This document shows positions 1-28,169 of a DNA stretch of 64,000 bases, piece after piece. How positions within the stretch are numbered: the first letter of the stretch is position 1; each line of letters opens with the position of its first letter. A program made the translations under genes and the position numbers. The stretch is from Tepidisphaera sp. Lineage in GTDB: Bacteria > Planctomycetota > Phycisphaerae > Phycisphaerales > UBA1924. Under the pieces are notes generated by a model, which had not been told where the DNA came from, did not search any database, and was given only the letters and a program-made list of their open reading frames with translations. The DNA lies in the NCBI GenBank assembly GCA_050916045.1, contig CP051526.1, positions 192,001-256,000 of the forward strand, read 5' to 3'.

Positions 1-554
1 TGGTAAAACCTGATGCACTCAAGAACCGCCCGAAGATGACGGATTTCGTCGCCCGTGCGAAGGAAGTTTGCAAAGCGTTCGCCGGGCCAGGCGGGACGGC
101 ACTGGTCGAGTCGATCACCGGCGATGGCGACGGCGACAAGCCCGCCAACTCCGACGGCTCGATCCGCACGGTATCGGACGCCTGGACCATCGAAGGCGAC
201 CCCCTGATGGAGCCGATTGACGTCGGCAAGGTCCGAAAGGTCGATTCCGGCGCACCTCAGCAGTCGATCCGCCTTCTCTTCTACAAGCGGGCCACCGACA
301 CCGTCGTTCGTCGGGCAGCTTTCGATGCGCCTTGGGCAGCGGCCGCTCTGGTCCTGACCCCGGGGGCGACCGCGGTTCCGGCGGAGAGCAACGAGTCGAC
401 AACCTGGCGCGTCCCGATCGTGGTGGAGGGAGAGGAAGTGCTCCCGGAAGGCACCAAGGCCATCCGGCGGCATATGTGGATCAAGGTCGTCCTGAAGAAG
501 CCGGTGCCCGCGGCCAAGAACTGGCCCCAAAAGGAAGATCTCGGTGGGAACTAA
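1..554 (+). CDS. 5'-truncated T6SS-associated protein; C-terminus resembles the TssM/IcmF C-terminal domain
   Basis: Frame open from the window edge to TAA at 552-554. FDAPWAAAALV resembles the TssM C-terminal GPWALFRL-type motif. Sits directly before a tagF-like gene, as tssM usually does. Confidence 0.4.
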   Translation, partial: VKPDALKNRPKMTDFVARAKEVCKAFAGPGGTALVESITGDGDGDKPANSDGSIRTVSDAWTIEGDPLMEPIDVGKVRKVDSGAPQQSIRLLFYKRATDTVVRRAAFDAPWAAAALVLTPGATAVPAESNESTTWRVPIVVEGEEVLPEGTKAIRRHMWIKVVLKKPVPAAKNWPQKEDLGGN

Positions 555-587
555 TCGCGAAACGAATCTCCGACGAGCGAGGGCGGC

Positions 588-1553
588 ATGACCATGCTTG
601 GGAAACTCTCCAAGTTGTTCCAGAAGCCGGCTTCGCCCGGACCCCGCGTTTCCTTGGCCGCGTTCGGAAAACACCCGGGCTGGGATGACCACATCGACGA
701 TCTGGGCTTGGACTCGCCCCGACTGGTGCACGTCAAGTCGGTCCTCTATTCGCAGGGAATCTCCGGAAACATTGATTCCGCCGAATGGGACCACCTTTCG
801 GAATCCGAACGCATCGCCGAATTCGGGCACGAATTTCTCTGGCGCTGGGCGGGTGACGCGGTGGTGGGGCTGATGTGGTCGAGCAAGGACGGCAAGGGCC
901 GGGCGAAGTATCCGATGGTGCTCGCGCTGCACGGGACCAAGATGCCGGTGAGCTGGCTTTGCTCGACGGGCTTGGACCGGCTGCGGGCGCTGCGCGACCA
1001 GTGCCGGTCACTCACGCGATCCACGGAGGTCATCCAGGCGATCGATTCCGCCCGCTCGGACCTGCAGGGAGCGTCGCTGACGATCCCGGAAGGAGACAAC
1101 GAGCCGGAGCGGCACCTCATCAAGAGGTTGATGAGTTCTCAGGAGGAAGCGTCGCGGCGCGGCTTTGTTCGAGTTTTGTACGATATTGAGCGGCGTCTGG
1201 GCGGCATGAGGGACAAGTCCAAGACCAAGACCCGGGTGATTGATGTTTCGGCCCACCATTTCCGGCTGCCGGCGATTCATACGGCGGGCAAGGTGCTCGA
1301 ATCCGGCCGGGCGTGGTCGGCTCTGATGATGGACACGGTGGGTCCGGGCCCGGTGCTTGCGGCGGGGATTCTCGCGATCGAGCCGGCGGGGACCGGGTTC
1401 GCGGATGTGATCGTCGGTGAGCCTCGGGTGCAGAACCTGTTCTGTCTGCGTGCTTCGAGCGCTCGCGAGCCTCTGACGTCGGACATCCCATTCACGATGG
1501 ACGAGTCGTTCGTGACGGTGGCTTCGCAGCAGATCGCGCAGTGGGGAGCCTGA
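588..1553 (+). CDS. tagF: TagF-like T6SS-associated protein
   Basis: N-terminal AFGKHPGWDDHI and GLMWSSKDGKGRAKYP resemble the TagF motifs (FGKLP..GDF; GV...S.D.VGR.YP); T6SS context. Confidence 0.65.
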   Translation: MTMLGKLSKLFQKPASPGPRVSLAAFGKHPGWDDHIDDLGLDSPRLVHVKSVLYSQGISGNIDSAEWDHLSESERIAEFGHEFLWRWAGDAVVGLMWSSKDGKGRAKYPMVLALHGTKMPVSWLCSTGLDRLRALRDQCRSLTRSTEVIQAIDSARSDLQGASLTIPEGDNEPERHLIKRLMSSQEEASRRGFVRVLYDIERRLGGMRDKSKTKTRVIDVSAHHFRLPAIHTAGKVLESGRAWSALMMDTVGPGPVLAAGILAIEPAGTGFADVIVGEPRVQNLFCLRASSAREPLTSDIPFTMDESFVTVASQQIAQWGA

Positions 1554-1626
1554 GCGGCGAGCGCGGAGGGCGCGCTCGGGCGAGCGACCCCGTTCAATCT
1601 TCCCTGGATTGGGTAAACCACCGAGG

Positions 1627-1656
1627 TTGACAAAGTGGTTTGGGTTCGGATAGCCT
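1627..1656 (+). promoter_or_regulatory. Putative sigma70 promoter for tpsB-tpsA
   Basis: TTGACA (1627-1632), 18-nt spacer, TAGCCT (1651-1656). The -35 box is flanked by an inverted repeat AAACCAC (1615-1621) / GTGGTTT (1635-1641). Confidence 0.5.
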
Positions 1657-1851
1657 GTGGTCCTGTCCCGGGAAGGTTCCCCGTCCCTGCGGTGCATGCG
1701 TCGGGCTGCGGGGAGGCTTTGCGGGCGATTGTCGGCGGTCTTTGCGTCGCACGGCTCACGTGCGAGCGTCGTCTTTCTACCTGCCGCTTGCGGCGGGGAA
1801 GCTAATTCAAGTTCAGAGATCCTGTTGCACCATGCTCGGAGCGACCTTCGA

Positions 1852-3801
1852 ATGAAGACTTATCGGATGACCCGGTGTGCCGCCCTTCTCGTCGCTTTCG
1901 CTGGCGTGGCGACGTTCTGCCCGGTCGCGATGGCTCAGGAAGCCGCGCCGGGCGGCACCTATCCGCAGCCGGATGCGAAGACGGACGGCGAGATCACCTA
2001 CGCCGTGAGCAAGTTTCTTCTTGAGTACGAGTACAACAACGAGGAGCATCCGCCGCTCCAGGAACTGTTCGCGGTGCAGGTGCCGGTCGGCGTGCTCGCC
2101 GACGGCGGGTACACGTATCCGCGAGCGGGCGTGCCGTCGACGATCATCACCGTGGGCGACGGCTTCAGCGACAAGGGCCAGATCTTCTATCCGGGCGGCA
2201 TCCGCGCGGTGAACGAAGCGATCGCCCGCGAGTTGGTCGAGAACCGCAAGCTGATCGGTGTTCGCGTGCTGGCCCACCCGGACGATGTGTCGCTTCAGGG
2301 TGGACAGGACACTCGCGGGCAGGGCAACACGCGGATGCGGCTGAAGATCTTCACCGCGCAGCTCGATGACACGAAGGTCCTCAATCAGAGCCGCGGCGTG
2401 GAACCCGAAGACCGGGTCAATCCCGAGCGTCTCGAGCGCCTCCGCGAGCGTTCGCCGATCAACGTTGGCGGGCTTATTCGCCGCGACCGGCTGGACGACT
2501 ACGTTCTGCGTCTGAACCGGCACCCCGGCCGCCGCATCAACGTGGCACTGGTTCCCTCCTCGGACAAGGCCGGACAGGTCGAACTCCAGTACCAGGTCGC
2601 CGAGGTCAAGCCCTGGTCGGTCTACGCCCAGGTCGCGAACATCGGCACCAAGACCACCGGCGAGTGGCGCGAGCGCATCGGGTTTGCCCACACGCAGCTC
2701 ACGAACAACGACGACATCCTCCGGCTGGATTTCCTGACGGCGGAGTTCGGCGACACGAACAGCGCGTTTGGCAGCTACGAGCGGCCGTTCTTCGACAACC
2801 AGGTGATCGCGAAGCTTTACGGCTCGTGGAGCCAGTACTCCGCGGACTCGGTCGGCATCGCCGGCCTTGAGTTCGAGGGAAGCAACTGGTCGGCCGGTGC
2901 CGAAGTGTCGGGGACGATCCTGCAGTCGGGCGCGAACTTCTTCGATCTCGTCGGCGGCGCCCGGTTCGAGAACGTCGAGGTCAACAACAAGCTGCTGGGC
3001 CAGGAGGGCGAGGAGGACTTCTTCCTTCCCTACGCCGGGCTTCGGTTCAGCCGAGTGACGGACGTGATGGCGACGAGCGCGTCGGGCATCTTTGAGTTCG
3101 GTCTGGGCAGCGTGACCAGCGCAAGCACCACCGAGCTCACCAAGCTGGGCCGCATTTTCCCGGACAAGGACTGGGTTGTTCTGAAGGTGGATGCGGAGCA
3201 CTCGATGTACATCGAGCCGCTGCTGCTTCCGACGCAGTTCAAGGAGAAGGACGCGAGCACGCTCCGTGGCACCACGCTTGCCCACGAGGTGGTGCTTGCG
3301 TTCCGCGGGCAGCACGCGTTCGGCAAGCGACTGACGCCGACGTTCGAAGGGATCGCGGGCGGTGCGTACTCGGTCCGCGGGTATCCCGAGTCGGTGGCGG
3401 CGGGCGACACGACGGTCACCGGTACGGTTGAGTACCGGTTCCACCTGCCGCGCACGCTCCTGACGACCGACAAGGACGGCAATCTCGCGTACATGGATCC
3501 GAACCAGACCGAGTTCTTCGGTCAGCCGTTCCGGGTCGGGCCGTCGGGCCCGTTCGATCGGACGGATTGGGACCTCATCTTCAAGGGCTTCGTGGACTTC
3601 GGCCGCGCGATGCAGAGCGACCGGCAGGTCTTCGAGCGTGACCACTCCCTGCTGAGCGCGGGTGTGGGCGTCGAGCTTCAGGTGCTTCAGAACCTCAACG
3701 TCAAGCTGGACTGGGGCTTTGCCCTGCACGACGTTCGGGGCACCGAAGTGGTGGATTCCGGCGACAACCGGGTGCACTTCTCGGCGACGATTCTGTACTG
3801 A
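1852..3801 (+). CDS. ShlB/FhaC/HecB-family two-partner secretion outer-membrane transporter (TpsB)
   Basis: Signal peptide MKTYRM...AMAQE after a GGAG; POTRA-like region (LNRHPGRRINVAL); Omp85/TpsB loop motif GGAYSVRGYPE; amphipathic beta strands; terminal aromatic residue (ILY). ATG 1852 preferred over the track start at 1657. Confidence 0.9.
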   Translation: MKTYRMTRCAALLVAFAGVATFCPVAMAQEAAPGGTYPQPDAKTDGEITYAVSKFLLEYEYNNEEHPPLQELFAVQVPVGVLADGGYTYPRAGVPSTIITVGDGFSDKGQIFYPGGIRAVNEAIARELVENRKLIGVRVLAHPDDVSLQGGQDTRGQGNTRMRLKIFTAQLDDTKVLNQSRGVEPEDRVNPERLERLRERSPINVGGLIRRDRLDDYVLRLNRHPGRRINVALVPSSDKAGQVELQYQVAEVKPWSVYAQVANIGTKTTGEWRERIGFAHTQLTNNDDILRLDFLTAEFGDTNSAFGSYERPFFDNQVIAKLYGSWSQYSADSVGIAGLEFEGSNWSAGAEVSGTILQSGANFFDLVGGARFENVEVNNKLLGQEGEEDFFLPYAGLRFSRVTDVMATSASGIFEFGLGSVTSASTTELTKLGRIFPDKDWVVLKVDAEHSMYIEPLLLPTQFKEKDASTLRGTTLAHEVVLAFRGQHAFGKRLTPTFEGIAGGAYSVRGYPESVAAGDTTVTGTVEYRFHLPRTLLTTDKDGNLAYMDPNQTEFFGQPFRVGPSGPFDRTDWDLIFKGFVDFGRAMQSDRQVFERDHSLLSAGVGVELQVLQNLNVKLDWGFALHDVRGTEVVDSGDNRVHFSATILY

Positions 3802-4034
3802 TCCCGGGAAGGCCGGGTGGATCGGAACCGCCGGGGTCCAGCCCCGGATGGAAGAGGGGGGGCGGGCGGTTTCGGGGACGGATTTGGGCGAAAGGGCCGT
3901 TTCGGCCGAAAGACGGCGACGGCGGGCGGGTTGGAATAGTGGGCGCGTGGAAGGTGGGGGGTCTCTGTTCGGGGTAGGACTGATCTGATCATTCACCATC
4001 CCGCCTGCGTTGCGGGAGCTGCTAGAGGAATGCC

Positions 4035-7000
4035 ATGAAGACGAACACTCGCGGGACCAATGCTGGCGACACGCTGGGAGCCTCGATCGGCGGCGCGGTC
4101 GGGCGCAAGCTTTGGACGTTGGCGAAAGTGGCGGGCCGTGCGGCCGGTCTTCGCAGTGTCGGCGGCGCGGCGGTGATCGCCGGGTTGCTCGCCGCGGCTT
4201 CGACGACGTCGGTCATCGCGGGCCCCGAGGGCGAGCAGGTGGTGGTCGGCAACGTGACCTTCACTCGGCAGGGCAACCTGTGGATCATCACCGCCAGCAA
4301 CGGCGCGATCATCAACTACGCCAGCTTTGACATTCTCCCGTACGAGACGGTGCGGTTCATCCAGCCGAGCCAGCTCTCGACGGTTTTGAACCGGATCAAC
4401 AGCGCCGCTCCGACCTTGATCCAGGGCCGCCTGGAAGCCAACGGCAACGTCTTCTTCGTGAATCCGGCGGGCGTGATCTTCACGAACACCTCGACGGTGA
4501 ACGTGGGCGGTCTCTACGCCGCGGCGGGCAACCTCAGCAACGAGGACTTCCTCTCGGGCAACATGCGATTCACCGGCCTTCAGGGCCAGGTCTCCAATAG
4601 CGGCAACATCACGGCCAACGCTGTCGCGATGGTCGGCCGCGAAGTCTCCAACCACGGCTCGATCATCGCTCACGGCGGCACGGTCGTGATGGCGGCGGGC
4701 GAGGAAGTGTTCATCGGACGCGAGGGAAGCAGCGTCTTTACGCAGATCCAGGGCGCCTCGGGGAGCGGCGGCCAGAACGCCGGCGTCACCAACACCGGCC
4801 GGATCGACGCTCGCGGCGGTCAGGTCACGATGTCCGCGGGTGACGCGGACGGCATGGCGATCTTCAACACCGGCGTCATTCGCGGCAACAACATCACCAT
4901 CGAGGGCCAGGGCCGCGGTGACGTGATGGTCCGCGGCGTGGTTGACGCTTCGAGCGACGCGGGCCGTGGCGGCGAGATCACGATCACCGGCGAGCGCGTC
5001 GGACTGTTCAACGCCCGCATCGACGCGAGCGGCACGTGGGGCGGCGGCACGATCCGCATCGGCGGCGATGCCGGGGGCCAGGGTGACACCCGCCGCGCGG
5101 ACTACGTCTTTGTCGACGAGAACACCACCGTCCGCGCGGACGCTCACGAGTTCGGCGACGGCGGCCGGATCACGTTCTGGGGCACGGAAGCGACGCGCAT
5201 CGCGGGTGATCTGTCCGCGATGGGCGGCATCCGTAGCGGCAACGGCGGGTTCATCGAAACCTCCGGCGGGTACATCGCTCTGGCGGGGACGCCGGACCTG
5301 CAGGCCCGTGCGGCTTCCGGCCGCGGCGGCCAGTGGGTCATCGATCCCAACGACATCACGATCGTGGCGGGCGGCGGCAACACGAACATCAACGCGGCGG
5401 ATCCGTTCGCATCGGCGGACGACAACGCTCAGCTGGGCGTGGATCTGATCACGGCGGCGCTGGGCAACGGCGTCAGCGTGTCGATCACGACGACGAACTC
5501 GGGCGCGGATTCGCAGCTTGGCAACATCACGCTGGCGACCAACCTCAGCTACACCGGGACGGGCAACGCGACGCTGACGCTGAACGCTCACAACAACATC
5601 GTGTTCAACACGGGCACGACGGTGACCGGCTCGGCTGCGGGCGGCCTGAACCTGGTCTTCAACGCCGATAGCGACAACGACGGATCCGGCAACGTCAACC
5701 TGAACAACGCGGCGATCACGCTCAACGGCGGGTCGCTGACGGTTTCGGCGAACGTCGAGGACTTCACGACTTCGGCGGGCGGCTCGATCAATACGGGCGG
5801 CGGAAACCTGACGCTGAACAACACCGGCGTGAACACGCTGGCGGCCAACATGAACCTGGGCGCGGGCGCGTTCTCGTCGGCGACGACGGGTCTGACGACC
5901 GTGAGCGGCACGCTGACGGCGGGCTCGGTGAACGTCGCGGGTCTGACGGCGCTCAACGGCGGCACGGTCACGACGACCGGCGGCACGCAGACGTACACGG
6001 GAGCGGTGACGCTTGGAGCCAACACGACGCTGATCGGCACGACGATCACGTTCGGATCGACGGTGGATTCTTCGGGCGGGGCCCGGACGCTGACGGTCAA
6101 CGGAGCGGGCGTGTTCAACGGGAACGTCGGCGGGCTGAGCTCGCTCTCGTCGCTGACGGTGACGGGTGCGGCGACCCTGACGAACGCTTCGGTCACCACG
6201 GTGACGACGCAGACGTACGGCGGGGCGATGAACATCGGCGGGTCGGCGACGACGCTGACGGGCACGTCGATCTCCTTCCAGAACACCCTTGATACGACGG
6301 TGGACCTGACGATCGCGAGCACGGGGGACGTGACGTTCACCGGGATCGCCTCCTTCGGCGGCAACACGACCATCGGCGGCACGAACATCACGTTCTCCTC
6401 GCTGGTGCAGACGGACGTGGCCGGCGACGGCCTGCGGGACCTGACGCTGAACGGTTCGGCGATCACGTCGTTCTTCAGCAACGTGTCTTCGGGAACGCGG
6501 CGGTTCGCGAACATCACTTCCAACGGGGCGGGCAGCGCGATCGTGCTGGGCACGGTCGAAGCGACCGGCAACATCGTTCTGAGTGACGGGTCCATCACGT
6601 TCGCTTCGGGCGCGACGTCGGTGACGGCCGGCGGCGACATCACCATTGGCGGCAACGCGAGCCTCGGCGCGAACATGGTGTTCTCCGGCGCGAACGTCAC
6701 GTTCTCGGGCACGGTGAACGACGACGCGGCGGCGACGCAGCGGACCCTGACGGTCAACAGCGCGGGCACGACGACGTTCGCTTCGACGGTGGGCGCGACG
6801 CGTGCGCTGGCGGCTCTGATCACCGACGCGGGCGGCACCACGATCCTGACCGGGAACGTCTCCACCACAGGCGGCCAGACGTACAACGACGCGGTGGAGC
6901 TCGCGGGCGACGTGGTGATCAGCGGCGCGACGATCACGTTCGCTTCGACGGTCGATAGCGACGGCACGGCCCGGGCGCTGACGGTCAACGACTCGGGGGT

Positions 7001-11156: not shown

Positions 11157-11193
11157 AAGCGGCGTTCGGACCGAATCCTGAAGCCTTCTCGAT

Positions 11194-18574: not shown

Positions 18575-19725
18575 AGGGCGCGGCTTCCAAGTCGGATGAT
18601 CTGTCGTCGCTCATGGAAAAGAGCGGGGAGTCGTCGCGCGACCATGAGATCGACCACCACAAGCGTGCCCGGGCTCAGGCCGAGGGCGACCTTCTCGACC
18701 TGCTCAGGCGCGTGGGGGAGACGCCGTGGGAGTTTGATTTTTTCGAACTGATGCGCCGCGTGGAGGCGCTCGCGGCCGTGGCGCAGGGCGCGCCGGGGCT
18801 TGGCAGGTCGTCCCGTTCGCGTGAGGATCCGGTCCGATTCGGGCAGGATCCGTCCCTCGCGTTCGCACCACGGGCGATCTCGAGCGCCAAGACGAGAGCG
18901 GGCATCACGCGGGTCGCGGTGAACTTCATGGGGCTGCTGGGGCCTCAGGGCCCGATGCCGCTCCACTTCGCGGATTACGTCCGGTCCCGCGAGCTTCATC
19001 ATCAGGATCCGACCTGGGCGAGGTTTCTGGACGTCTTCAACAACCGGATGGTCGCGCTGTTGTACCGCGCGTGGGCGATGAACCGCCCGATGGTCTCCCG
19101 GGATGCGACCGCCAACGGGCAGATCGATCGTGACCGGTTCGCCGCGTATGTCGGCAGCTTTTTCGGTCTCGGAACGCCCAGCGTGTGGAACCGCGACGCG
19201 GTCGCCGATGACGCCAAGCGTTTCTTCGCCGGCCGGCTTGCGAACCAGACGCGGAGCCCCGAAGCTCTGGCTTCGATTTTGCGAGAGTTCTTCGGCGCGC
19301 CGGTCGAGATCGAGGAGTTCGTCGGCCGCTGGAGCGAGCTTCCCGAACAGTACCTGACTCGGCTTGGCCGCAAGGGCGTCTCGACCATCGCGTGCGGCTC
19401 CGGCGGGCGAGCGGCCGGCACGGCGATCCTCGGCGGACGCGTCTGGGAGTGTCAGAGCACGGTGCGGATCACCATCGGACCGCTGCCGTGGAAAGCCTAC
19501 GAACAGATTCTCCCGGGGAGCAAGGGGTACGAGCAACTGGTCTCGTGGATCTCGATGTTCGGCGGGATCGAACTCGGCTGGGAGGTCGTGCTGGTGCTCG
19601 ACCGGCGCGAGGTGCCGCTCCCGCGGCTCGGCGGCGGTGGCGGCGTGAGGCTCGGTTACAGTGCGTGGATGTCCAGGACCAAGCCGGAGCAGGACCCGGC
19701 GGATGTAGTGCTCCGCAGCCGCTAA
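18538..19725 (+). CDS. tssG: T6SS baseplate subunit TssG
   Basis: VRFGQDPSLAF, FMGLLGPQGPMPL, FLDVFNNRM..LLYRAW, IEEFVGRW motifs; 37-nt overlap with tssF. Confidence 0.95.
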   Translation: MAGQDRSTPDGVKGAASKSDDLSSLMEKSGESSRDHEIDHHKRARAQAEGDLLDLLRRVGETPWEFDFFELMRRVEALAAVAQGAPGLGRSSRSREDPVRFGQDPSLAFAPRAISSAKTRAGITRVAVNFMGLLGPQGPMPLHFADYVRSRELHHQDPTWARFLDVFNNRMVALLYRAWAMNRPMVSRDATANGQIDRDRFAAYVGSFFGLGTPSVWNRDAVADDAKRFFAGRLANQTRSPEALASILREFFGAPVEIEEFVGRWSELPEQYLTRLGRKGVSTIACGSGGRAAGTAILGGRVWECQSTVRITIGPLPWKAYEQILPGSKGYEQLVSWISMFGGIELGWEVVLVLDRREVPLPRLGGGGGVRLGYSAWMSRTKPEQDPADVVLRSR

Positions 19726-19752
19726 AGCGGCGAGCGAAAGGTTGAGACGAAT

Positions 19753-22467
19753 ATGGGTGATATCAGCAGAACGGCGCTCTTCGGCAAACTCAACAACCTC
19801 GGGTACAAAGCTCTCGAAGGCTCGACCGTCTTCGCCAAGCTCCGCGGCAATCCGTACGTCGAACTCACGCACTGGCTCCACCAGATCGTGCAGAACCAGG
19901 ACAGCGATCTGCATCGCATCGTCCGCCGGTTCGAGATCAATCCGAGCAAGCTCGCGGCGGACATGCAGACGGCGCTCGATCGGATGGCTCGCGGCTCGGA
20001 CGGCATCCGCGACATCTCGATGACGCTCCAGGACAGCGTCGAGAAGGGCTGGCTCTACGCTTCGCTCCAGTTCCGCGAGTTCCAGGTGCGAACGGGCCAC
20101 GTGATCTACGCGTGCCGCAAGACGCCCGAGCTTGAGAAAGCCCTCTTTGCCGTCAGCCGCGAGTTCGAGAAGTTCAACGCCGACGTCTTCGCCAAGGACT
20201 ATCTCAAGATCGTCGGCGAATCCCCCGAGCATGGCATGTCGGCGAGCGATGGCACCGGCGTCGGGGCCGGCGCGGGTGGCGGACCGGGCGAAGCAAGCGG
20301 CGCGATGGCTCCCGCCGTCATGGGCAAACAGGAAGCCCTCGAGAAGTACACCAAGGACCTCACCGAAGCCGCTCGCAAGGGCGAGATCGACCCCATCGTC
20401 GGCCGCGACGATGAGATTCGCCAGTGCGTCGACATCCTCATGCGCCGCCGCCAGAACAATCCGATCCTCGTCGGTGAGCCCGGCGTTGGCAAGACCGCGG
20501 TGGTGGAGGGGTTCGCGGGCCGCATCGCACGTGGCGACGTTCCGCCTGCGCTCAAGGATGTCTCCGTCCGCGAGCTTCGCATGTCCGACCTTCAGGCCGG
20601 CGCGAGCATGAAAGGCGAGTTCGAGAATCGCCTCAAGCAGGTCATCGAGGAGGTCCAGCAGAGCCCCAAGCCGATCATCCTCTTCATCGACGAAGCCCAC
20701 ACGCTCATCGGCGCCGGCGGTGCCGCCGGCCAGAACGATGCCGCCAACCTTCTCAAGCCCGCCCTTGCCCGAGGCACGCTCCGAACCATCGCGGCGACCA
20801 CCTGGGCCGAGTACAAGAAGTACTTCGAGAAGGACGCTGCGCTCACCCGCCGATTCCAGACCGTCAAGGTCGATGAGCCCGACGAGAAGAAAGCCATCCT
20901 CATGATGCGCGGCGTCACCGGCATGTTCGAGAAGCACCATCGCGTGCACATCCTCGATGAAGCCCTCGAATCCGCCGTCAAGCTCAGCTACCGGTATATC
21001 CCCGCCCGCCAGCTTCCCGACAAGAGCGTCAGCCTGATCGACACCGCCGCCGCCCGCGTCGCCGTCAGCCAGCACGCCGTCCCCGCCGAGCTCGACGACT
21101 GCATCAAGCGGATCGAAAGCCTCGAGGTCGAGCAGTCCATCATCGAGAAGGAAGCCGTCATCGGCCTCGAACACGGCGAACGCAAAGCCGAGATCGACGC
21201 CGAACTCGTCAAGGAACGCCAACGCCGCGCCGATCTCGACGAACGTTGGAAGAAAGAGAAGGCTCTCGTCCAATCCATCATCGCCGCTCAGAAGAAGCTC
21301 AAGGGTGAGGATGCTCTCCAAGCCGCGGGCCAACTCGCGCCCGGAGCCGAGAAAGCCGCTCCGCTCACCGATGCCGAACGTGCCACGCTTGTCGCCGAGC
21401 TCGCCAAGCTCAAGGGCGAACTTACCACGCTGCAGGGCGAAAGTCCGTTGATCCTGCCGAACGTCGACGCGCAGGCGATCGCCGCCGTCGTCGCGGACTG
21501 GACCGGCGTCCCCGTTGGCAAGATGGTCAAGGACGAGATGCAGTCGGTGATGAAGCTCGCGGACACGCTCAGCGAGCGCGTGATCGGCCAGCGCCACGGC
21601 CTTGAGACCATCGCGAACACGATCCGCCTCAGCCGCACCGGCCTCAACAACCCCACACGGCCCATCGGCGTGTTCATGCTGGTCGGGACGAGCGGCGTCG
21701 GAAAGACCGAGACCGCGCTCGCCCTCGCCGACACGCTTTACGGCGGTGAGGACAACCTCATCACGATCAACATGAGCGAGTTCCAGGAAGCCCACACAGT
21801 CTCGACGCTCAAGGGCGCCCCCCCCGGGTACGTCGGGTACGGCGAGGGCGGCGTGCTGACCGAAGCCGTGCGCCGCCGGCCCTACTCGGTCGTCCTGCTC
21901 GACGAAGTCGAGAAAGCCCACCCCGACGTCCATGAGATCTTCTTCCAGGTCTTCGACAAGGGCATCATGGAGGACGGCGAGGGCCGCGTGATCGACTTCA
22001 AGAACACGATCATCCTCCTCACCAGCAACGCCGGCAGCGACCTGCTGATGAGCATGTGCAAGGACCCGACCCTCATGCCGTCGGTCGAGGGCCTGCAGAA
22101 AGCGATGCGCGAGCCGTTGCTCAAGGTCTTCCCCGCCGCACTTCTCGGACGTCTGGTCGTCGTTCCCTACTACCCCATCTCCGACGAGATGCTGACCGCG
22201 ATCATCAAACTCCAGCTCCGCAAGATCCAGAAACGCGTCGCGACCAACCACAAAGCCGAGCTCACCTACTCCGACGAGGTCGTCCGCCTCGTCGCCGAAC
22301 GCTGCACCGAGGTCGAAAGCGGAGCCCGCGCGGTCGACGCGATCCTCACCCAGAAAATGCTCCCGGAGATGAGCCGCGAGTTCCTCAACCGCATGATCGA
22401 AGGCCGGGCGATCAGCAAGGTGCGGATCGGGGTCAAGGATTCGGAGTTCGTGTACTCCTTCGACTGA
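19753..22467 (+). CDS. tssH: T6SS ATPase ClpV (TssH)
   Basis: RRRQNNPILVGEPGVGKT, IDEAH, GTSGVGKTE, GYVGYGEGGVLTEAVRR; ClpV-type N-terminus YVELTHWL. Confidence 0.97.
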   Translation: MGDISRTALFGKLNNLGYKALEGSTVFAKLRGNPYVELTHWLHQIVQNQDSDLHRIVRRFEINPSKLAADMQTALDRMARGSDGIRDISMTLQDSVEKGWLYASLQFREFQVRTGHVIYACRKTPELEKALFAVSREFEKFNADVFAKDYLKIVGESPEHGMSASDGTGVGAGAGGGPGEASGAMAPAVMGKQEALEKYTKDLTEAARKGEIDPIVGRDDEIRQCVDILMRRRQNNPILVGEPGVGKTAVVEGFAGRIARGDVPPALKDVSVRELRMSDLQAGASMKGEFENRLKQVIEEVQQSPKPIILFIDEAHTLIGAGGAAGQNDAANLLKPALARGTLRTIAATTWAEYKKYFEKDAALTRRFQTVKVDEPDEKKAILMMRGVTGMFEKHHRVHILDEALESAVKLSYRYIPARQLPDKSVSLIDTAAARVAVSQHAVPAELDDCIKRIESLEVEQSIIEKEAVIGLEHGERKAEIDAELVKERQRRADLDERWKKEKALVQSIIAAQKKLKGEDALQAAGQLAPGAEKAAPLTDAERATLVAELAKLKGELTTLQGESPLILPNVDAQAIAAVVADWTGVPVGKMVKDEMQSVMKLADTLSERVIGQRHGLETIANTIRLSRTGLNNPTRPIGVFMLVGTSGVGKTETALALADTLYGGEDNLITINMSEFQEAHTVSTLKGAPPGYVGYGEGGVLTEAVRRRPYSVVLLDEVEKAHPDVHEIFFQVFDKGIMEDGEGRVIDFKNTIILLTSNAGSDLLMSMCKDPTLMPSVEGLQKAMREPLLKVFPAALLGRLVVVPYYPISDEMLTAIIKLQLRKIQKRVATNHKAELTYSDEVVRLVAERCTEVESGARAVDAILTQKMLPEMSREFLNRMIEGRAISKVRIGVKDSEFVYSFD

Positions 22468-22618
22468 CCCCGTCTCCGTCCGGCGCAGGGCTTCGGGCGG
22501 AGGTCCTATCTTGGGTTGGTGTCGGTCGGAAGGTTGGTGCGATGGTGTTCCAGGGGTCCGGACCGACGAAGGTCGGTCGATGTACGGTCCCCGTTGGCTC
22601 GACAGAGCGGAGTGATTC

Positions 22619-24688
22619 ATGCCACGAACGCAAGCGAATCGATTTGTGGCCATCAAGACGGCGCTGGACGCCGATGTGCTTCTCATCCGGTCCATGTCCG
22701 TCACGGAGGAGCTTGGCAAGCCCTTCGAGATCACCGCGGAGCTTCTCAGCGAGGACCGCCAGATCGACTTCAACCTCGTCATCGCCAAGCCCTGTGCGAT
22801 CCGGATGGAACTCGGCAATGGACAGACGCGCTATTTCCACGGCATCGTCGCGGAGTTCAGCCAGGGCGGGCTTGTGGGTGAACTTGCGTCATACCGCGCG
22901 GTGATCGTCCCCTGGACCTGGCTTCTCACCAAGACCTCGCATTGCCGCACGTTCCAGGAGATCAAGCGGCCCGATGTCGTCCAGAACGTCCTCAAGGAAC
23001 AGGGCTCGGACATTGAGCTTCGCCTCTCGGAGACGTACGAGAAGTCCGAGTTCATCGTCCAGTATCGCGAGACGAACCACAACTTCGTCAGTCGCCTCCT
23101 TGAGCACGAGGGCATCAGCTACTTCTTCACCCACACCGACACCAAGCACACGATCGTCCTCGCCGACAGCCCCGCCGCGTACGAGCCTTTCGAGGGGTAT
23201 GAGAAGATCCGCTTCTCTTCGGAGGGATTCGATCGCGCCGATGAGCAGCAGGGCATCCGCACGCTCAGCATCAAGCAGGTCGTCACTCCGGCTCGTGTGA
23301 CTCTCAAGGACTTTGACCCCTTGGTGCCGAAGAAGGATCTGACCAAGCGGCGCGAGAAGGGTTGGGACCAAACCGCCGTCGGCGAGATCTTCGACTTTCC
23401 GGGCGAGTACACGGTCGCCAGCGAGGGCGAAGCGGTTGCACAGCGGCGGCTTCAGGAACTCCAGACCGCCCGCCATGTCATCTCCGGTACCGGCAACGCC
23501 CGGGGCATCGCGGTCGGACACACGTTCGAGATCGAAGCTCCGCCGCGTGAGGATCTCGCGGGCAAGAAATGGCTCGTCACCAACGCCAGCTACGAGATCA
23601 TCGTCGACGACTACGGGGCCGCCAAGGGCGGGTCCGGCGGCGCCTCCTTCTCAGTCTCGTTCTCTGCGATCGAGTCCTCTGTGCCTTTCAGGCCCGAACG
23701 CGTCACGCCAAGCCCGATCATCTCCGGACCTCAAACCGCGATCGTCGTCGGACGAAACGGCGAAGAGATTACCACCGATGAGCACGGTCGCGTCAAGGTG
23801 CTCTTCCATTGGGACCGGTTCGCCTCGGGCGACGAAAACTCTTCGTGCTGGGTCCGTGTTTCCCAAGCCTGGGCCGGGAAGTCCTGGGGTGCGATGTTCC
23901 TGCCGAGGCACGGTCACGAAGTGATCGTCGAGTTTATCGAGGGCGACCCCGACCGCCCGATCATCACCGGGCGGGTCTACAACGGGGACAACGCGCCGCC
24001 CTGGGAGTTGCCAGCAAAGAAGGAGATTTCCGGCTTCTTCTCCAACTCGAGCAAGGGCGGCGAAGGCGCGAACAAGATTCTCATTGACGATACGAAAGGG
24101 GCCGAACGCCTCGGACTTCGTGCTGAAAAGGACATGATGATCCAGGTGCTCAACAACAGGCACGCTGGCATCGCGGAGTACGACGACCTGACTGCCAAGA
24201 ACGTGCGATGGCTGATCAAAGACACACTTCAGTTCGAGATCAACAAGGACGAGGTTCGTCTGATCCACGGAGAGTGCGGGTTCGCGATCGACAAAGACTA
24301 CAAGGGCTGGGTCGACGGCAAGCAATCCATGACGGTCAAAGGCGACGTCGCGATCAAGAGTGAGAAGAACCACGCGATCGAGGTCGCCGAGCAGTTTCAC
24401 GTGAAAGCCAAGGAGATCATTCTCGAAGCCTCCGCCAACCTCACCATCAAGGTTGGCTCGACCACCATCGCCATCGAGCCCGGAGGCGTCGCCATCGACG
24501 CCAAGGGCGATGTCACCGTCAAGACTTCCGGGAACTGCAAGGTGGAAGCAACCCAGAACGTCGAAGTCAAAGGCACAGCCGCGTTCAAGGCCGAGGGCGC
24601 CGAGGCTTCCGTCAAGGGCACCGGCAAAGCGTCGCTCGAAGCGTCCGGCCAGACCGTCGTCAAGGGCGGCATGGTGATGATCAACTAG
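22619..24688 (+). CDS. vgrG: T6SS spike protein VgrG (TssI)
   Basis: VQYRETNHNFVSRLLEHEGI, GPQTAIVVG, GRVKVLFHW, WVRVSQAWAG, GDPDRP; gp5-like C-terminal repeats; no effector extension. Confidence 0.97.
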   Translation: MPRTQANRFVAIKTALDADVLLIRSMSVTEELGKPFEITAELLSEDRQIDFNLVIAKPCAIRMELGNGQTRYFHGIVAEFSQGGLVGELASYRAVIVPWTWLLTKTSHCRTFQEIKRPDVVQNVLKEQGSDIELRLSETYEKSEFIVQYRETNHNFVSRLLEHEGISYFFTHTDTKHTIVLADSPAAYEPFEGYEKIRFSSEGFDRADEQQGIRTLSIKQVVTPARVTLKDFDPLVPKKDLTKRREKGWDQTAVGEIFDFPGEYTVASEGEAVAQRRLQELQTARHVISGTGNARGIAVGHTFEIEAPPREDLAGKKWLVTNASYEIIVDDYGAAKGGSGGASFSVSFSAIESSVPFRPERVTPSPIISGPQTAIVVGRNGEEITTDEHGRVKVLFHWDRFASGDENSSCWVRVSQAWAGKSWGAMFLPRHGHEVIVEFIEGDPDRPIITGRVYNGDNAPPWELPAKKEISGFFSNSSKGGEGANKILIDDTKGAERLGLRAEKDMMIQVLNNRHAGIAEYDDLTAKNVRWLIKDTLQFEINKDEVRLIHGECGFAIDKDYKGWVDGKQSMTVKGDVAIKSEKNHAIEVAEQFHVKAKEIILEASANLTIKVGSTTIAIEPGGVAIDAKGDVTVKTSGNCKVEATQNVEVKGTAAFKAEGAEASVKGTGKASLEASGQTVVKGGMVMIN

Positions 24689-24710
24689 TTCCAGAACAGG
24701 GAGATTCGCC

Positions 24711-26039
24711 ATGGGAGCAAGCCCACGATCAGGAAAGGGAGCCTCGCCCGACGCGCCGGCCGCTCCCGCTGCGCCAGAGGAGCGCGAGCTTGACGGCTCC
24801 GGCGAGGTCTCCGAAGCCGCCGCAAACCCCGCTACGCTCGAAACCGGCGAGGTCGGCGCGGAAACCGTCGAGCCCCTTCCCCCGCCGGAAGAACCCGCCG
24901 CCGAGGAAGAGCCGCCCATCCCCACGCTCACCGTGCGGTGGAGCAAAGCCCGCGTCCCCCCGGTCTACAACAAGAACTTCCGCCCCACGACTCCGCCCAC
25001 CGACGAGATCCCCGATGAGTGCAAGGTCGAGATGATCGCGGACACCACCGACGTCCCCGACGGAACGACCGCATCCATCCAGGTCTATCAGTGCTGGTTC
25101 GACTACTCCGTCCCGGGCGCCTCGTTCCCCGACCTTGAGGTCCGCGGCGGCCGCGTCATCGACCCCGCCACCGGTGAGCGGCCCATCATGACCTTCACCC
25201 ACGACAACTACATCTACCAGCCGTGGGACAAAGATGTCTACTACTTCCGCTGCAACGTCGACTTTGAAGGCTTGGAAGCCGACACCCCCAGCGACGCCGA
25301 CACCCAGGAAGCCCAGTGCCTCCGCGTCATGTGGTTCCACATGTGCGCGGCCGACTCGATCGCGGACACGCCCGCCGGCGGCGGACTCACCACCAACGCC
25401 GAAGCCAACGAGATCAAGGGCATTATGGATGCCAAGCAGCACCATAAAGCCGCCAAGCACGCGTTCAACGCCCGAAACCCCCCGACCAACATCTGGGGCT
25501 CCTGGATCCGCAACACCTACTGCTACCACCACGCCAGCCACGGCGACATCGTCGACCGCACCACCGGTGCACAGCTCAACGCCGGCGCCGCCAACCCGCC
25601 CCGCAATCGCGTCGGTAACTGGCGAAGCGTCATCATCATCGGCAGCAAAGCCATCGGCGACGCCGAAGTCAGCGACACCGATGCTTGCCCCAGCGTGCCC
25701 AAGTACCTTGCATACCTCGACACCTGCGTCGCGGGCTGGGAGCCGAGCTTCGCCCACGCGTGGATCTCGCGCGGCACCCAGAACGTCATCGCGTTCCGGA
25801 TGTACATCCCCGACGGCGACGCCCGCGCGATGGCCCGAAGGTTCCACCGCAAGTGGATCGGCACGCACAACGGCGACCCGTCCAAGATCAACGAGACGTT
25901 CTTCGAGATCGGGTCGCGGTACTACTGGACGATGCGGCCCGTGCTCTTCGGGATGAACGGCGGCGAGATCATCCGCGGCGGCAAAGACCCCAACGTGCTT
26001 GCCGGCGCCATCGCCGAGGAACTGGGAGTCGACTGGTGA
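24711..26039 (+). CDS. Putative VgrG cargo effector with a C-terminal caspase-like (CHAT/clan CD) cysteine protease domain
   Basis: 22 nt after vgrG with GGGAG. YHHASHG (His277) and YLAYLDTC (Cys339), then FAHAWISRGTQNVIAF...IPDGDARAMARRFH, follow the CHAT layout. Confidence 0.65.
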   Translation: MGASPRSGKGASPDAPAAPAAPEERELDGSGEVSEAAANPATLETGEVGAETVEPLPPPEEPAAEEEPPIPTLTVRWSKARVPPVYNKNFRPTTPPTDEIPDECKVEMIADTTDVPDGTTASIQVYQCWFDYSVPGASFPDLEVRGGRVIDPATGERPIMTFTHDNYIYQPWDKDVYYFRCNVDFEGLEADTPSDADTQEAQCLRVMWFHMCAADSIADTPAGGGLTTNAEANEIKGIMDAKQHHKAAKHAFNARNPPTNIWGSWIRNTYCYHHASHGDIVDRTTGAQLNAGAANPPRNRVGNWRSVIIIGSKAIGDAEVSDTDACPSVPKYLAYLDTCVAGWEPSFAHAWISRGTQNVIAFRMYIPDGDARAMARRFHRKWIGTHNGDPSKINETFFEIGSRYYWTMRPVLFGMNGGEIIRGGKDPNVLAGAIAEELGVDW

Positions 26040-26518
26040 ACCACGATCTGATCAACGACCTCGAACTCCGCGGCAAAGCCGAGGCCGACTGCCGCGAAGC
26101 CGCCGCTCGCGTCTCGCCGAGCGAGTGCCGCGTCGACGTCGCCCTCGCCGCGACCGAGTGGGACCCCGACGACATGCGGTTCATCTTCGAGTTCGAAGCC
26201 AACCTCTGGCTCGCAGGCCCCGCTTTCGACGTCATCATCGACGACCTCGGACGCACCGTCGGCTACATCGACGAGAGCAAGTGGCGAGCGTGCTCGTGGA
26301 AGCCGCTGACCCGCGCTCGCGCCACCGAGATCGCCTCCGAGTCCGGATACGTCAGCAAAGCCGCCGCGATCATAGGGTTCGGCAAGGGCGAGAAGGGATG
26401 CCTCGAGGCACGGTTCCTCACCGACGCCCGCGACCCCGCTTCCAAGCGATACGTCGCCCGCATCAACCCCGTCCTAGAGAAGCTTATCTCGATCATGCCC
26501 GAGGAGGTCGAGCTGTGA
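26036..26518 (+). CDS. Hypothetical protein with PepSY-like motifs (candidate immunity/inhibitor)
   Basis: GTG overlaps the effector stop (GTGA). LTRARATEIA...YVARINPVLEKLISI resembles the PepSY helix and terminal hairpin. Confidence 0.55.
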   Translation: MNHDLINDLELRGKAEADCREAAARVSPSECRVDVALAATEWDPDDMRFIFEFEANLWLAGPAFDVIIDDLGRTVGYIDESKWRACSWKPLTRARATEIASESGYVSKAAAIIGFGKGEKGCLEARFLTDARDPASKRYVARINPVLEKLISIMPEEVEL

Positions 26519-26814
26519 CACCACGCGAAGCATCATCCATCGCCGAAGCCAAGCGGCCCGCCCACGGCGTACCGCCCGCGGCCGAAGCCTGCCCGCCCGA
26601 GCAGCGCTGGATCGAGCTCGACTCCCGAGACAAGGACGGTCACCGCCTCGTTCGCGATGCGCTGGTCTGGGTGGTGCGGTTCGTGCTCCCCGGGGCCTGG
26701 ATCGATCTTCTGATCGCCGACAGCGGTGGCGCTGTCGTCCGCGTCGACAAGTCGCGCGGCTACGTCCTCACCTACGACCGCCCCGCCGACGATCAGCAGG
26801 AGGTCGCCCCATGA
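26515..26814 (+). CDS. Small PepSY-like protein (candidate immunity/inhibitor)
   Basis: GAGGAGG then GTG overlapping the previous stop; MTPREASSIAE...LVWVVRF...WIDLLIADSGGAVV. Confidence 0.55.
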   Translation: MTPREASSIAEAKRPAHGVPPAAEACPPEQRWIELDSRDKDGHRLVRDALVWVVRFVLPGAWIDLLIADSGGAVVRVDKSRGYVLTYDRPADDQQEVAP

Positions 26815-27341
26815 CCGCTCCCATCCCACCCGAATTCCAAGCCGCCAGCGGGACGATGTACGACACCTTCGCCCGCGACATGCGAGCACGCGGCATGCCC
26901 GAAGCCGTCCCGTTCCTGAAGGACAAGCTCGCACCGCGCCACGAGAGCACCCTGCCCGCAGGCCCCGGCTATCGCGTCGTCAAGATGAAGGTCTTCAGCA
27001 GGTTCACCTCGTACTCGGCCACATACAACGCCCGCACCGGCGAACAGACCTCGATGATGATGGGCGCCCTCATGAAGGACCCGGGCGAAGAGCTCACCCG
27101 CGATGAAGCCGTCGAAGCAGCGTCCGCCCTGCTCAAGCCGCCCGGCGACGCCCTCCTCGATGTCGCCGAGTATGACCAGGCCGCCGGCGAACCCTTCTTC
27201 ATCGTCCGCTGGTCGCATAAGCATCAGGGCGTGGTCGTCGAGCGCGACTACATCCAGGCTCTCTTCAACGGAAAGAGCAAGCGTATTTTCTCGTGGTCGC
27301 GCCGCTGGCACTCCGTCCGCACCGAGGAGGCTCCGCGATGA
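26811..27341 (+). CDS. PepSY/peptidase-propeptide-like protein (YcdB/YcdC-like repeats)
   Basis: AGGAGG; ATGA overlap; TYNARTGE, LTRDEAVEAA, FIVRWSHKHQGVVVERDYIQALFNGKSKRIFSW. Confidence 0.6.
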   Translation: MTAPIPPEFQAASGTMYDTFARDMRARGMPEAVPFLKDKLAPRHESTLPAGPGYRVVKMKVFSRFTSYSATYNARTGEQTSMMMGALMKDPGEELTRDEAVEAASALLKPPGDALLDVAEYDQAAGEPFFIVRWSHKHQGVVVERDYIQALFNGKSKRIFSWSRRWHSVRTEEAPR

Positions 27342-27841
27342 ATCCGCTCGGGTCGTGCTCGCTTGCCGTCGCGTGCCTCGTGCTCGCCGGTTGCGGCGCG
27401 AACCAACCCGCACCCGCCGCGCCGGAACCCACCCCGGCGCCCGTTGTCACCAAACCCGCCGGCACGGAGGCCGTTATGCCGCTTGCGACCATCGATCCTT
27501 CCATTCTCGAACAAGCCAAGGACGAAGGCGGCTTCGTCGCGATCGTCCGCGTCACCTCGTCCAAGATCGAGAACGCCGGCACCCGGAGCGAAGCCGCTCG
27601 CATCGAAGCCGAGGTGCTCCGCTCCATCCACGGCACGCTTGCCGGAAAGATCTCGCTCCGTTCCTACACCAAGGGCGGCGATCCCGTCCTCAAGCCCGGC
27701 ACCGTGCACGCCGTCGCTCTCTTCACCGATCCCAGGTTCGCTCCGGCAATGGACCTCATCGGCCACGCGCCCTGCGACGAAGCTCGCGTCGAAGAATCCG
27801 CCCAGGCACACACGAAGCTGCTCAAGGGAACACCCCGTTGA
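27338..27841 (+). CDS. Lipoprotein of unknown function (possible NTR/TIMP-like OB fold)
   Basis: GAGGAGG; ATGA overlap; lipobox LAGC; Pro-rich linker; FVAIVRV...AEVLRSIHG...LKPGTVHAVAL. Confidence 0.6.
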   Translation: MNPLGSCSLAVACLVLAGCGANQPAPAAPEPTPAPVVTKPAGTEAVMPLATIDPSILEQAKDEGGFVAIVRVTSSKIENAGTRSEAARIEAEVLRSIHGTLAGKISLRSYTKGGDPVLKPGTVHAVALFTDPRFAPAMDLIGHAPCDEARVEESAQAHTKLLKGTPR

Positions 27842-27875
27842 CCGTTCGCGCGACGCGCACTTCGGAGACCACGCG

Positions 27876-28169
27876 ATGCCAAACGCAGCCTGTGTCGGAG
27901 ACATGCACACCTGCCCGTTGTTCAACGGCCCGGTGCCGCACGTGGGCGGACCGATCCTGCCTCCCGGCACGCCGAACGTCATCATCGGCGGACGTCCTGC
28001 GGCCGTCGCGACCGGGATGTGCGTCTGCGTCGGCCCACCCGACACGATCGCCAAGGGATCCGCGACGGTGATGATCGGCGGCAAGCCCGCCGCCCGCGTC
28101 GGCGACCTGACCGCGCATGGCGGGAGCATCGTGGGCCCCGGGGCGCCCACGGTCATGATTGGCGGGTGA
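27876..28169 (+). CDS. PAAR-domain spike tip protein
   Basis: MPNAACVGDMHTCP...GRPAA...GKPAARVGDLTAHGG; GGAG before ATG 27876. Confidence 0.95.
   Translation: MPNAACVGDMHTCPLFNGPVPHVGGPILPPGTPNVIIGGRPAAVATGMCVCVGPPDTIAKGSATVMIGGKPAARVGDLTAHGGSIVGPGAPTVMIGG

Follow-up and report, generated by a model that had tools for sequence, protein, structure and literature searches.

In the H1 type VI secretion system (T6SS) of Pseudomonas aeruginosa, one unit reads tssA-B-C-hcp-tagJ-E-F-G-clpV-vgrG and tssK-L-M-tagF belongs to another, and in classical two-partner secretion (TPS, type Vb) adhesins such as FhaB/FhaC, adjacent genes encode a repeat-rich protein with a TPS domain and its ShlB-type transporter. 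Here, we analyse a stretch of 64,000 nucleotides from the planctomycete Tepidisphaera sp. (contig CP051526.1, positions 192,001 to 256,000; G000:C1:192001-256000, hereafter ‘the window’), whose genome (G000) is a single contig of 4.08 Mb and in which parts of both kinds of system stand together: a tpsB-tpsA pair lies on the forward strand between a gene with the TagF fold and tssA, within a T6SS locus. A preliminary description of the window had proposed that the pair tethers or senses target cells for the T6SS, or contributes to the outer-membrane part of its membrane complex. By following the locus through relatives, we arrive at the best-supported statement that this fibre pair belongs to the membrane-complex operon and that, as comparative sequence evidence suggests, its evolutionary tie to TssL-TssM-TagF is closer than the one to the contractile tail.

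The locus is like the H1 system in the gene order of both units and in the presence of TagF, which some relatives fuse to a TagR-like FGE-sulfatase domain; it is unlike it in that both units lie on one strand, the TPS pair occupies the slot after tagF and no kinase, phosphatase, FHA or TssJ was found in our scans. With FhaB/FhaC it shares the TPS domain, the ShlB-type transporter, the neighbouring genes and the repeat body, whereas both proteins are distant from solved ones and the pair is fixed inside a T6SS locus.

According to the available part of a recent preprint (bioRxiv 10.64898/2025.12.08.692957), 22% of 741 TagF contexts are without Fha and the kinase pathway, and the TagF of Acinetobacter baylyi binds Hcp and is recruited by a membrane protein. 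The ‘TSA’ context of that TagF, as far as that part of the source describes it, resembles our locus in providing the best structural match and in having tagF without fha, the phosphorylation pathway or TssJ. Its context genes tagN, tagX, tslA, tsmK and tagZ did not come up here in Pfam and NCBIfam scans, no homology search having been made for them, and, unlike in the partnership with Hcp reported there, TagF persists in reduced loci of our set without Hcp. Again from sources available in part, TasL of the Vibrio fischeri T6SS2 is a surface protein encoded in a T6SS locus and serving contact (PMC9040878), and proteins of the TslA/TagM1 type are outer-membrane factors for target recognition (review PMC13584744). 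TpsA resembles these as a large surface protein from a T6SS locus with a presumed role in making or sensing target contact, but those are described in these parts as lipoproteins, whereas here a two-partner-secreted filament has its own transporter, is encoded in the membrane-complex operon and outlasts the loss of the tail. The Acinetobacter membrane complex, in the available part of its description (PMC10564176), is without TssJ, contains TsmK and has other proteins in place of TssJ; our locus likewise has no TssJ and has recruited lineage-specific envelope proteins, but relatives with the same TssM are without the TPS pair, and nothing found here supports the pair in that role. In full-text literature searches we came across neither a TPS pair presented as an accessory to a T6SS nor a T6SS in Phycisphaerae, and the words two-partner, TpsA, hemagglutinin and adhesin are absent from the available part of a 2026 review of T6SS accessory genes (PMC13584744).

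A conserved fibre pair within a complete T6SS locus

Genes were called from a listing of open reading frames (ORFs) and from Pfam and NCBIfam scans, with a Pfam limit of E ≤ 0.001 (Table 1). Together with u354, tssK, tssL and a 1417-residue tssM upstream, the window holds a complete T6SS locus, without a recognisable TssJ, of a planctomycete that, from the labelling of its relatives, resembles Phycisphaeraceae, the T6SSi core (tssA-G, tssK, tssL, tssM, hcp, vgrG and clpV) being all present in one locus. Several claims of the preliminary description stand: the ORF listing and family scans confirm both the place of tpsB-tpsA, on one strand between the tagF-like gene and tssA, and the downstream order tssA-B-C-hcp-tagJ-E-F-G-clpV-vgrG, all on the forward strand. 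Its guess that tssJ, tssK and tssL lie upstream proved right for tssK and tssL, found just upstream with tssM; a match to TssJ (PF12790) was not found in the genome. It had seen no kinase or phosphatase gene, and we likewise found no kinase, phosphatase or FHA domain among forward-strand ORFs of at least 150 amino acids (aa) in the 20 kb upstream or among 24 ORFs at 28979-63389; among the locus ORFs scanned, the kinase, phosphatase and FHA genes of the threonine-phosphorylation switch (PpkA/PppA/Fha/TagQRST) are thus missing.

We searched 41 relatives and a draw of 151 family genomes (138 genera). Of the 41, 22 have TpsB, 16 the TssM N-domain and 11 TssC. Those with TssM carry tpsB on the same contig, 5-9 kb downstream of the TssM N-domain, in 14 of 16 cases, the remaining two being one fragment and one contig break. 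The full order u354-tssK-L-M-tagF-tpsB-tpsA-tssA...clpV, as mapped by tblastn, is present in seven genomes (G000, G001, G009, G016, G017, G018 and G023) that span at least six genera, with TssC identity down to 48%. Across the family draw, matches were obtained with the TagF alignment in 79 genomes, the TpsB alignment in 114, TssC in 61, TssK in 60, the TssM N-domain in 74 and TssJ in none, and in 66 of the 79 with TagF, tpsB follows tagF on the same strand at a distance of at most 7 kb. In seven of the other 13 (G010, G049, G050, G075, G118, G125 and G157), tpsB and tssC share a strand, with tpsB 11-21 kb upstream, so that after a contig break, split or inversion the TPS pair stays with the tssA side in these seven genomes; the last six are two that are too fragmented to judge and four with only weak TagF matches. 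The TpsB family is present in all 61 TssC-positive genomes, compared to 53 of the 90 TssC-negative ones.

Two findings that the preliminary description thought would speak against a shared role, a one-off insertion and a TpsB phylogeny at odds with that of the T6SS core, did not emerge. The first is ruled out by the presence of the pair in the orthologous loci of those 66 family genomes. For the second, TpsB distances correlate with those of TssK (r = 0.71), TagF (0.68) and the TssM N-domain (0.56; permutation p = 0.001 for these three) and with those of TssL (0.54), with n = 42-60, and core-core correlations reach 0.78-0.86 over a wider set of taxa; by this measure, whose figures kinship inflates, the phylogenies are broadly congruent.

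Scanning a collection of species genomes with the TagF alignment gave 420 relatives. The best 80 of the 420 loci carry mostly Phycisphaerales or Phycisphaeraceae labels, the others including Tepidisphaeraceae, Planctomycetaceae, Pirellulales, Verrucomicrobiota, Victivallales and Kiritimatiellae; u354-tssK-L-M-tagF is found in nearly all of the 80 with enough upstream DNA, and tpsB-tpsA follows tagF in 52. Twelve loci with 9-10 kb of downstream DNA gave no tblastn match and, by Pfam on 55 of their 63 listed ORFs, show no TPS or ShlB domain. In place of a pair, these twelve, all but one with labels other than Phycisphaerales, show housekeeping genes, a kinase-TPR-Ig protein of 2941 aa, FHA proteins or a protein with a caspase domain, or go straight on to tssA. 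The idea that the slot after tagF is a place for sensing and regulation is in line with what relatives carry there, namely forms of TagF with a transmembrane helix and an FGE-sulfatase domain, the giant kinase-Ig protein and FHA proteins, the last in a Victivallales locus. The giant protein, from a verrucomicrobial locus (L060:11851-20676, forward strand), has a Ser/Thr kinase domain at its N-terminus, besides a zinc ribbon, TPR and about 15 Ig-like surface domains, and looks like a PpkA-like sensor kinase; the caspase-domain (Peptidase_C14) protein lies behind a long TagF-FGE gene of a Planctomycetaceae locus (L084:14550-16418, forward strand).

Taken together, the comparisons support the view that the TPS pair is a conserved, vertically inherited and lineage-specific accessory of this T6SS locus type, not an accident.

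Probable repeated loss of the tail with retention of TssL, TssM, TagF and the pair

Sixteen of the 66 genomes with linked tagF and tpsB, from 15 genera, are without both TssC and TssK, and 13 of these are at least 90% complete; in one further genome (G015) TssK is present and the locus ends at a contig edge. Such a joint absence is unlikely to be an assembly gap because the two markers flank the pair on opposite sides. The TssM N-domain is retained in 13 of the 16, ten of them with frames of at least 1400 aa and two with shortened ones. In four assemblies (G002, G006, G019 and the single-contig G003), tssL-tssM-tagF-tpsB-tpsA is present, whereas tssK, the tssA-to-vgrG block and any tssC are missing throughout. 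Mapped by tblastn, ten reduced loci, which include five more from the family draw and two from the collection scan (their genomes being without tssC), read u354(C-terminal half)-tssL-tssM-tagF-tpsB-tpsA; in nearly all mapped ones, with G006 as the exception, u354 is cut down to its C-terminal half of some 150 aa, which immediately precedes tssL. This genome is the closest relative of the source, with a TpsB that is 82% identical; it is collinear with G000 on both flanks and differs from it by two clean gaps, 89 bases taking the place of tssK and about 315 bases that of window positions 11116-28977.

Reduced loci are scattered over a TpsB tree of 64 rows (quick IQ-TREE, LG+G4; five duplicate contigs and rows below 450 aa left out), in which the seven rows without a TssK match need at least six changes. 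One of these seven, L089, is a false call that we did not count as a reduced locus, as tblastn missed its TssK but tssC is on the same contig. For members of the source genus, the branching order is (G003 reduced, (G002 reduced, (G000 full, G006 reduced), (G001 full, L042 full))). These topologies suggest about six independent losses of tail and baseplate genes, and losses rather than gains because the regain of two blocks at identical gene boundaries would be far less likely. In a side observation, the tssK of G129 (G129:C16:27454-28761, reverse strand) has one in-frame TAA, with tssC still present, and may be en route to the reduced state.

Between G000 and G006, the ratio of non-synonymous to synonymous substitution rates (dN/dS) is 0.10-0.25 for u354, TssL, TssM, TagF, TpsB and TpsA. 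Between G019 and G168, both reduced and of one genus, it is 0.09 for TssL, 0.13 for the C-terminal half of u354, 0.14 for TagF, 0.17 for TpsB, 0.23 for TssM and 0.25 for TpsA, with dS of 0.39-0.80. If the loss is older than the split of these two, the genes would have been kept by selection without the tail.

The fibre and its transporter

Both proteins bear the marks of a type Vb system: the TPS domain of TpsA (residues 85-290) and the ShlB match of TpsB score above their family cut-offs (33.5 and 22.7 bits), and tpsB ends 233 bases before tpsA on the same strand. No POTRA model matched TpsB at E ≤ 0.001, and a search of the PDB with the TpsB profile gave CdiB at E 0.01 only. In TpsA, the TPS domain at the N-terminus is followed by a body of repeats rich in T, G and A and by a conserved C-terminal domain, the last 200 or so residues looking helical; the C-terminal 250-450 aa are conserved among linked orthologues of different genera and one stand-alone relative, without a Pfam match and with a best ESM Atlas score of 0.75 that gave no lead. 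We predict that TpsB is an outer-membrane transporter and that it exports TpsA as a fibre rich in repeats, with a C-terminal domain that is conserved where a toxin tip would vary. TpsA does not appear to be a polymorphic toxin of the CdiA type, because its C-terminus is conserved, the VENN motif that we associate with such toxins is absent, and the 170 bases between tpsA and tssA, hairpin included, leave no room for an immunity gene. A CdiBAI arrangement, in which an immunity gene follows a variable C-terminal toxin, is not what this locus presents.

The membrane complex and its outer-membrane partner

The gene for TssM starts 3.7 kb upstream of the window, at G000:C1:188301. Pfam and NCBIfam models cover residues 34-472 only (TIGR03348, 278 bits there), and a profile search of the genome found no match to PF06744. 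Residues 1000-1417, however, resemble IcmF_C/IcmF_helical clusters in the ESM Atlas (score 0.94), and their model (mean predicted local distance difference test, pLDDT, of 85) has a helical domain and a beta domain that matches C2 domains, aligning end to end with residues 666-1103 of TssM from enteroaggregative Escherichia coli (EAEC; Z 7.3, 341 residues, root-mean-square deviation 11.7). The top two Foldseek rows for this model were TssM chains, with weak E values of 0.04-0.06, and VIA-align gave modest Z scores of 7.3 and 6.7 over the whole length. The far end of TssM is thus predicted to be canonical, helical plus C2-like, and the idea that TssM lacks the IcmF_C, TssJ-binding end was dropped after the ESM Atlas match and the EAEC alignment. 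The periplasmic part (about 965 aa) is poorly conserved and the cytoplasmic part well conserved, with a Walker A motif that is invariant in an alignment of 48 sequences, seven of them from reduced loci. Against the PDB, the TssM profile returned only helical or coiled-coil matches such as apolipoprotein, and the single sequence nothing useful.

Heading the tssK-L-M operon across bacteria of the Planctomycetes-Verrucomicrobia-Chlamydiae (PVC) group, u354 has no Pfam or NCBIfam match; it has the look of an adaptor in two parts, of which the N-terminal one belongs with the baseplate. An ORF once labelled ‘u154’ (L004 1329-1793, forward strand) was judged spurious, the real gene there being a small lipoprotein gene on the opposite strand.

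TssJ (PF12790) has no match in the source genome or in any of the 151 family genomes, with a divergent or replaced lipoprotein still possible. The small lipoprotein, 60-110 aa across loci and without a Pfam or NCBIfam match, is conserved in G006, G002, G001, G003 and L042, and faintly in others, and thus in both full and reduced loci of the source genus. By a crude lipobox screen, 45 of 71 loci were positive beside the operon, some doubtfully, which brings the figure to about 40. It is a simpler candidate than TpsB for the outer-membrane partner of a complex without TssJ. Co-folding of mature TpsB (30-649) with TssM 1100-1417 scored 0.00, a run without controls that counts neither way.

TagF and its periplasmic extensions

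The tagF-like product is silent in Pfam at E ≤ 0.001, TagF_N (PF09867) reaching 13.9 bits (E 0.115) against a cut-off of 27. Its AlphaFold2 model, built from an alignment of 12 orthologues (pLDDT 87), has as best Foldseek match the A. baylyi TagF 9t0n (E 5.6e-9, TMq 0.58, full length). The top five rows are all TagF chains, from the three entries 9t0n, 6iz8 (three chains) and 2qnu (one), the latter two being P. aeruginosa TagF and ranking after 9t0n. We call the protein TagF-like by its predicted fold and by its place after tssM, not by a sequence model.

Many relatives have the TagF N-terminal domain at the start of a longer protein (about 650-1950 aa) that contains one transmembrane helix, and Pfam scans of these long forms found a C-terminal FGE-sulfatase domain; G000 has the short form (Table 1). 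This domain has what we take to be the fold of TagR, the periplasmic sensor of the H1 system. The long form would connect the periplasm with the T6SS brake within a single protein, and a fusion of TagF, transmembrane helix and FGE-sulfatase domain is not described in the literature searched.

Organization of the locus

On its sequence, the locus comprises two units on one strand, u354-tssK-tssL-tssM-tagF-tpsB-tpsA and then tssA to vgrG, followed by cargo and PAAR. The hairpin behind tpsA, which starts 38 bases past the stop codon, would mean that tpsBA closes the membrane-complex operon and tssA opens the next unit; it is the only strong one of seven sites in 1-12600, and a total of seven is the level expected by chance. 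A scan for sigma-70 promoters, with a model that may not suit this phylum, found none.

A lake-metagenome contig of a close relative spans the tpsA-tssA junction. From one freshwater RNA library, eight small contigs with a likeness of at least 95% map to the locus, three to tpsB, two to tpsA and the others to tssB/C, hcp and tssF/G; this hints weakly at expression, as DNA carry-over is possible. DNA runs contained 0.24-0.33 of the sampled words, which we do not take as evidence of habitat.

Table 1. Features of the T6SS locus and related genes; plain coordinates refer to the window.
Feature	Coordinates	Strand	Description
small lipoprotein gene	L004:1476-1715 = G000:C1:184476-184715, outside the window	-	80 aa, predicted; divergent, just upstream of u354
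u354	L004:1992-3056, outside the window	+	354 aa, cytoplasmic, no known family
tssM, 3' end	1-554	+	last 184 codons of the 1417-aa TssM; IcmF-related_N 201.7 bits
tagF-like	588-1553	+	321 aa, short form without membrane or periplasmic part; TagF fold
tpsB	1852-3801	+	649 aa; Omp85-type outer-membrane transporter; Pfam ShlB (PF03865) 31.3 bits; signal peptide
tpsA	4035-11156	+	2373 aa, exported filament protein; TPS domain (PF05860) 78.4 bits; TIGR01901 69.8 bits
terminator-like hairpin	11194-11219	+	11-bp stem, 8 G-C pairs, T-rich tail
tssA	11326-12402	+	ImpA_N 104 bits; TIGR03363 206 bits
tssB (sheath)	12446-12958	+	TIGR03358 191 bits
tssC (sheath)	12951-14441	+	VipB 455.6 bits; VipB_2 150.4 bits
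hcp	14457-15137	+	T6SS_HCP 137 bits on ORF residues 69-200; start codon probably internal
tagJ/impE	15288-16100	+	family scan
tssE	16027-16596	+	family scans
tssF	16613-18574	+	family scan
tssG	18538-19725	+	family scan
clpV	19753-22467	+	family scan
vgrG	22619-24688	+	family scans
three ORFs, cargo region	24711-26039, 25999-26814, 26811-27341	+	442, 271 and 176 aa; no Pfam or NCBIfam match
predicted lipoprotein, cargo region	27338-27841	+	167 aa; lipobox
PAAR	27873-28169	+	PAAR 80.8 bits
long TagF-FGE example	L026:11723-15376	+	
long TagF-FGE example	L030:12243-16787		
long TagF-FGE example	L025:7036-10737	-	
long TagF-FGE example	L032:12087-16004		
long TagF-FGE example	L034:10271-14446		
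further long TagF-FGE examples	L084, L094, L102, L104, L106		

Two ORFs were set aside: 12406-12897, considered for tssB, has no family match, and 12446-12958 was used instead; 3-554 is not a separate gene but the end of the TssM begun upstream. Between vgrG and PAAR, the three ORFs and the 167-aa lipoprotein, the latter without a homologue among the related loci compared, are likely a set of effector, chaperone or adaptor, and immunity genes. Housekeeping genes take over from 28979 on, beginning with dnaN and transketolase.

Two observations lie outside this inventory. About 20 family genomes have a further sheath gene of the VipB type, only distantly related (E 1e-30 to 1e-60), which may be part of a different contractile system; the copy of G017 (G017:C7:37709-38554, reverse strand) is just 3 kb beyond the T6SS locus. 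When the G006 locus was compared with G000 by blastn, a sequence of about 170 bases recurred at 39832-39992 of the window and at more than 100 other places across the chromosome, on both strands and with 70-80% identity; this could be either a repeat element or the conserved N-terminus of a protein.

Discussion

The reading we prefer, and to which we give about an even chance, is that the fibre pair, an accessory of this lineage with a probable role in contact or sensing, goes with TssLM-TagF and not with the contractile tail. The fibre would work with the membrane complex (TssL-TssM) and the cytoplasmic brake TagF; in full loci it would most likely make or report contact with a neighbour, such that the weapon is assembled where hits are possible, and in lineages without tail and baseplate TssL-TssM-TagF-TpsB-TpsA would persist under selection as a unit of its own. 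The role in tethering or sensing target cells proposed in the preliminary description is plausible on this reading.

Several points weigh against it. The link between the fibre and TssLM-TagF is comparative throughout, the ORFs and start codons are our own calls, the adjacency tallies were read by eye from tables of places, and shared ancestry inflates both the genome counts and the distance correlations, so that independence is overstated. TssM is shortened to 900 and 771 aa in G079 and G116, and no TssM N-domain was found in G011, G109 and G147. dS is near saturation in some comparisons, and the dating of the loss before the split of G019 and G168 (genus g14) is an assumption, though a parsimonious one. 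The same TPS family stands alone in 35 of the 72 TagF-less family genomes and is thus able to work without T6SS parts, and two of four stand-alone TpsB genes nest among linked ones in the tree. A series from full to reduced to TPS-only loci could therefore reflect decay in steps, with the fibre as the one part that is really required; the many independent lineages that appear to have stopped at the middle step, with intact and constrained tssL, tssM and tagF, argue against pure decay.

The most serious competitor, which we nevertheless hold to be unlikely, is an independent adhesin that travels with the locus at an operon junction, functionally unconnected with both the T6SS and TssLM-TagF. 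The stand-alone members of the family speak for it, the four such loci examined having unrelated neighbours that include housekeeping genes, as do the wider distribution of the TPS family (114 of 151 genomes, against 61 with the T6SS) and the PVC relatives that run the same T6SS type without the pair. It leaves unexplained, however, why intact tssL, tssM (at least 1400 aa) and tagF remain beside tpsBA under purifying selection after some six losses, why tpsBA follows the tssA side in split or inverted loci and why every TssC-positive genome has the TpsB family. That the reduced loci are mere wreckage, with nothing selected except perhaps tpsBA, seems distinctly improbable: the truncated or missing TssM of five genomes would fit, and the in-frame stop in the tssK of G129 indicates that decay happens, but the ten long TssM frames, the Walker A motif that is invariant also in seven reduced loci, the dN/dS of 0.09-0.23 for TssL, TagF and TssM between two reduced species and the clean, gene-exact deletions of G006 do not look like debris.

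Two further alternatives give the pair another task. TpsB, or the C-terminus of TpsA, might replace TssJ as the outer-membrane anchor of the TssM channel, which would suit the missing TssJ, TpsB being the only recognisable outer-membrane protein in the locus, a TssM whose C2-like end aligns with that of EAEC and, as far as the available part of the source goes, the Acinetobacter precedent (PMC10564176). We consider this improbable, and the corresponding proposal of the preliminary description, that the pair forms part of the outer-membrane portion of the membrane complex, found no support. Verrucomicrobiota, Victivallales, Planctomycetaceae, Pirellulales and one Phycisphaeraceae locus have the same u354-tssK-L-M-tagF operon and a long TssM without a TPS pair in the 9-10 kb downstream; the far end of TssM appears canonical; the small lipoprotein beside the operon is a simpler anchor candidate; the TPS family can stand alone; and an anchor role gives no reason for retaining the pair once the tail is lost. 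Very little credence goes to TpsA as a second contact weapon of the CdiA kind, with a toxin at its tip and co-regulated with the T6SS. The rest of the locus is indeed devoted to antagonism, and contact-dependent inhibition systems are among the large TpsA proteins with TpsB partners, but the C-terminal region is conserved where such a toxin would be polymorphic, matches nothing in Pfam and lacks VENN, and what separates tpsA from tssA is a short gap with a hairpin.

A bolder version of the preferred reading, which we regard as possible but doubtful, is that TssL-TssM-TagF, the C-terminal half of u354 and perhaps the small lipoprotein form with TpsB-TpsA a free-standing envelope machine. The T6SS membrane complex would then have been taken over as the inner-membrane and periplasmic partner of the fibre, as gate, anchor or energiser, the last considered because the P-loop of TssM is invariant; in full loci, the same TssLM-TagF-TPS unit would couple fibre contact to tail assembly through TagF. 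Were this true, it would be a third home for the IcmF/DotU pair, besides the T6SS and type IVB secretion, and the first hybrid of type Vb and type VI parts.

These loci touch two open issues, how a T6SS finds and holds its targets and which roles the membrane complex has beyond carrying the tail. In them, evolution seems to have run the same experiment some six times, removing tail and baseplate while membrane complex, brake and fibre were kept under selection, which suggests an undescribed partnership of two secretion systems. If the fibre and TssLM-TagF do work together, they would offer a testable, kinase-free route from cell contact to T6SS assembly, and T6SS membrane parts would serve another secretion system.

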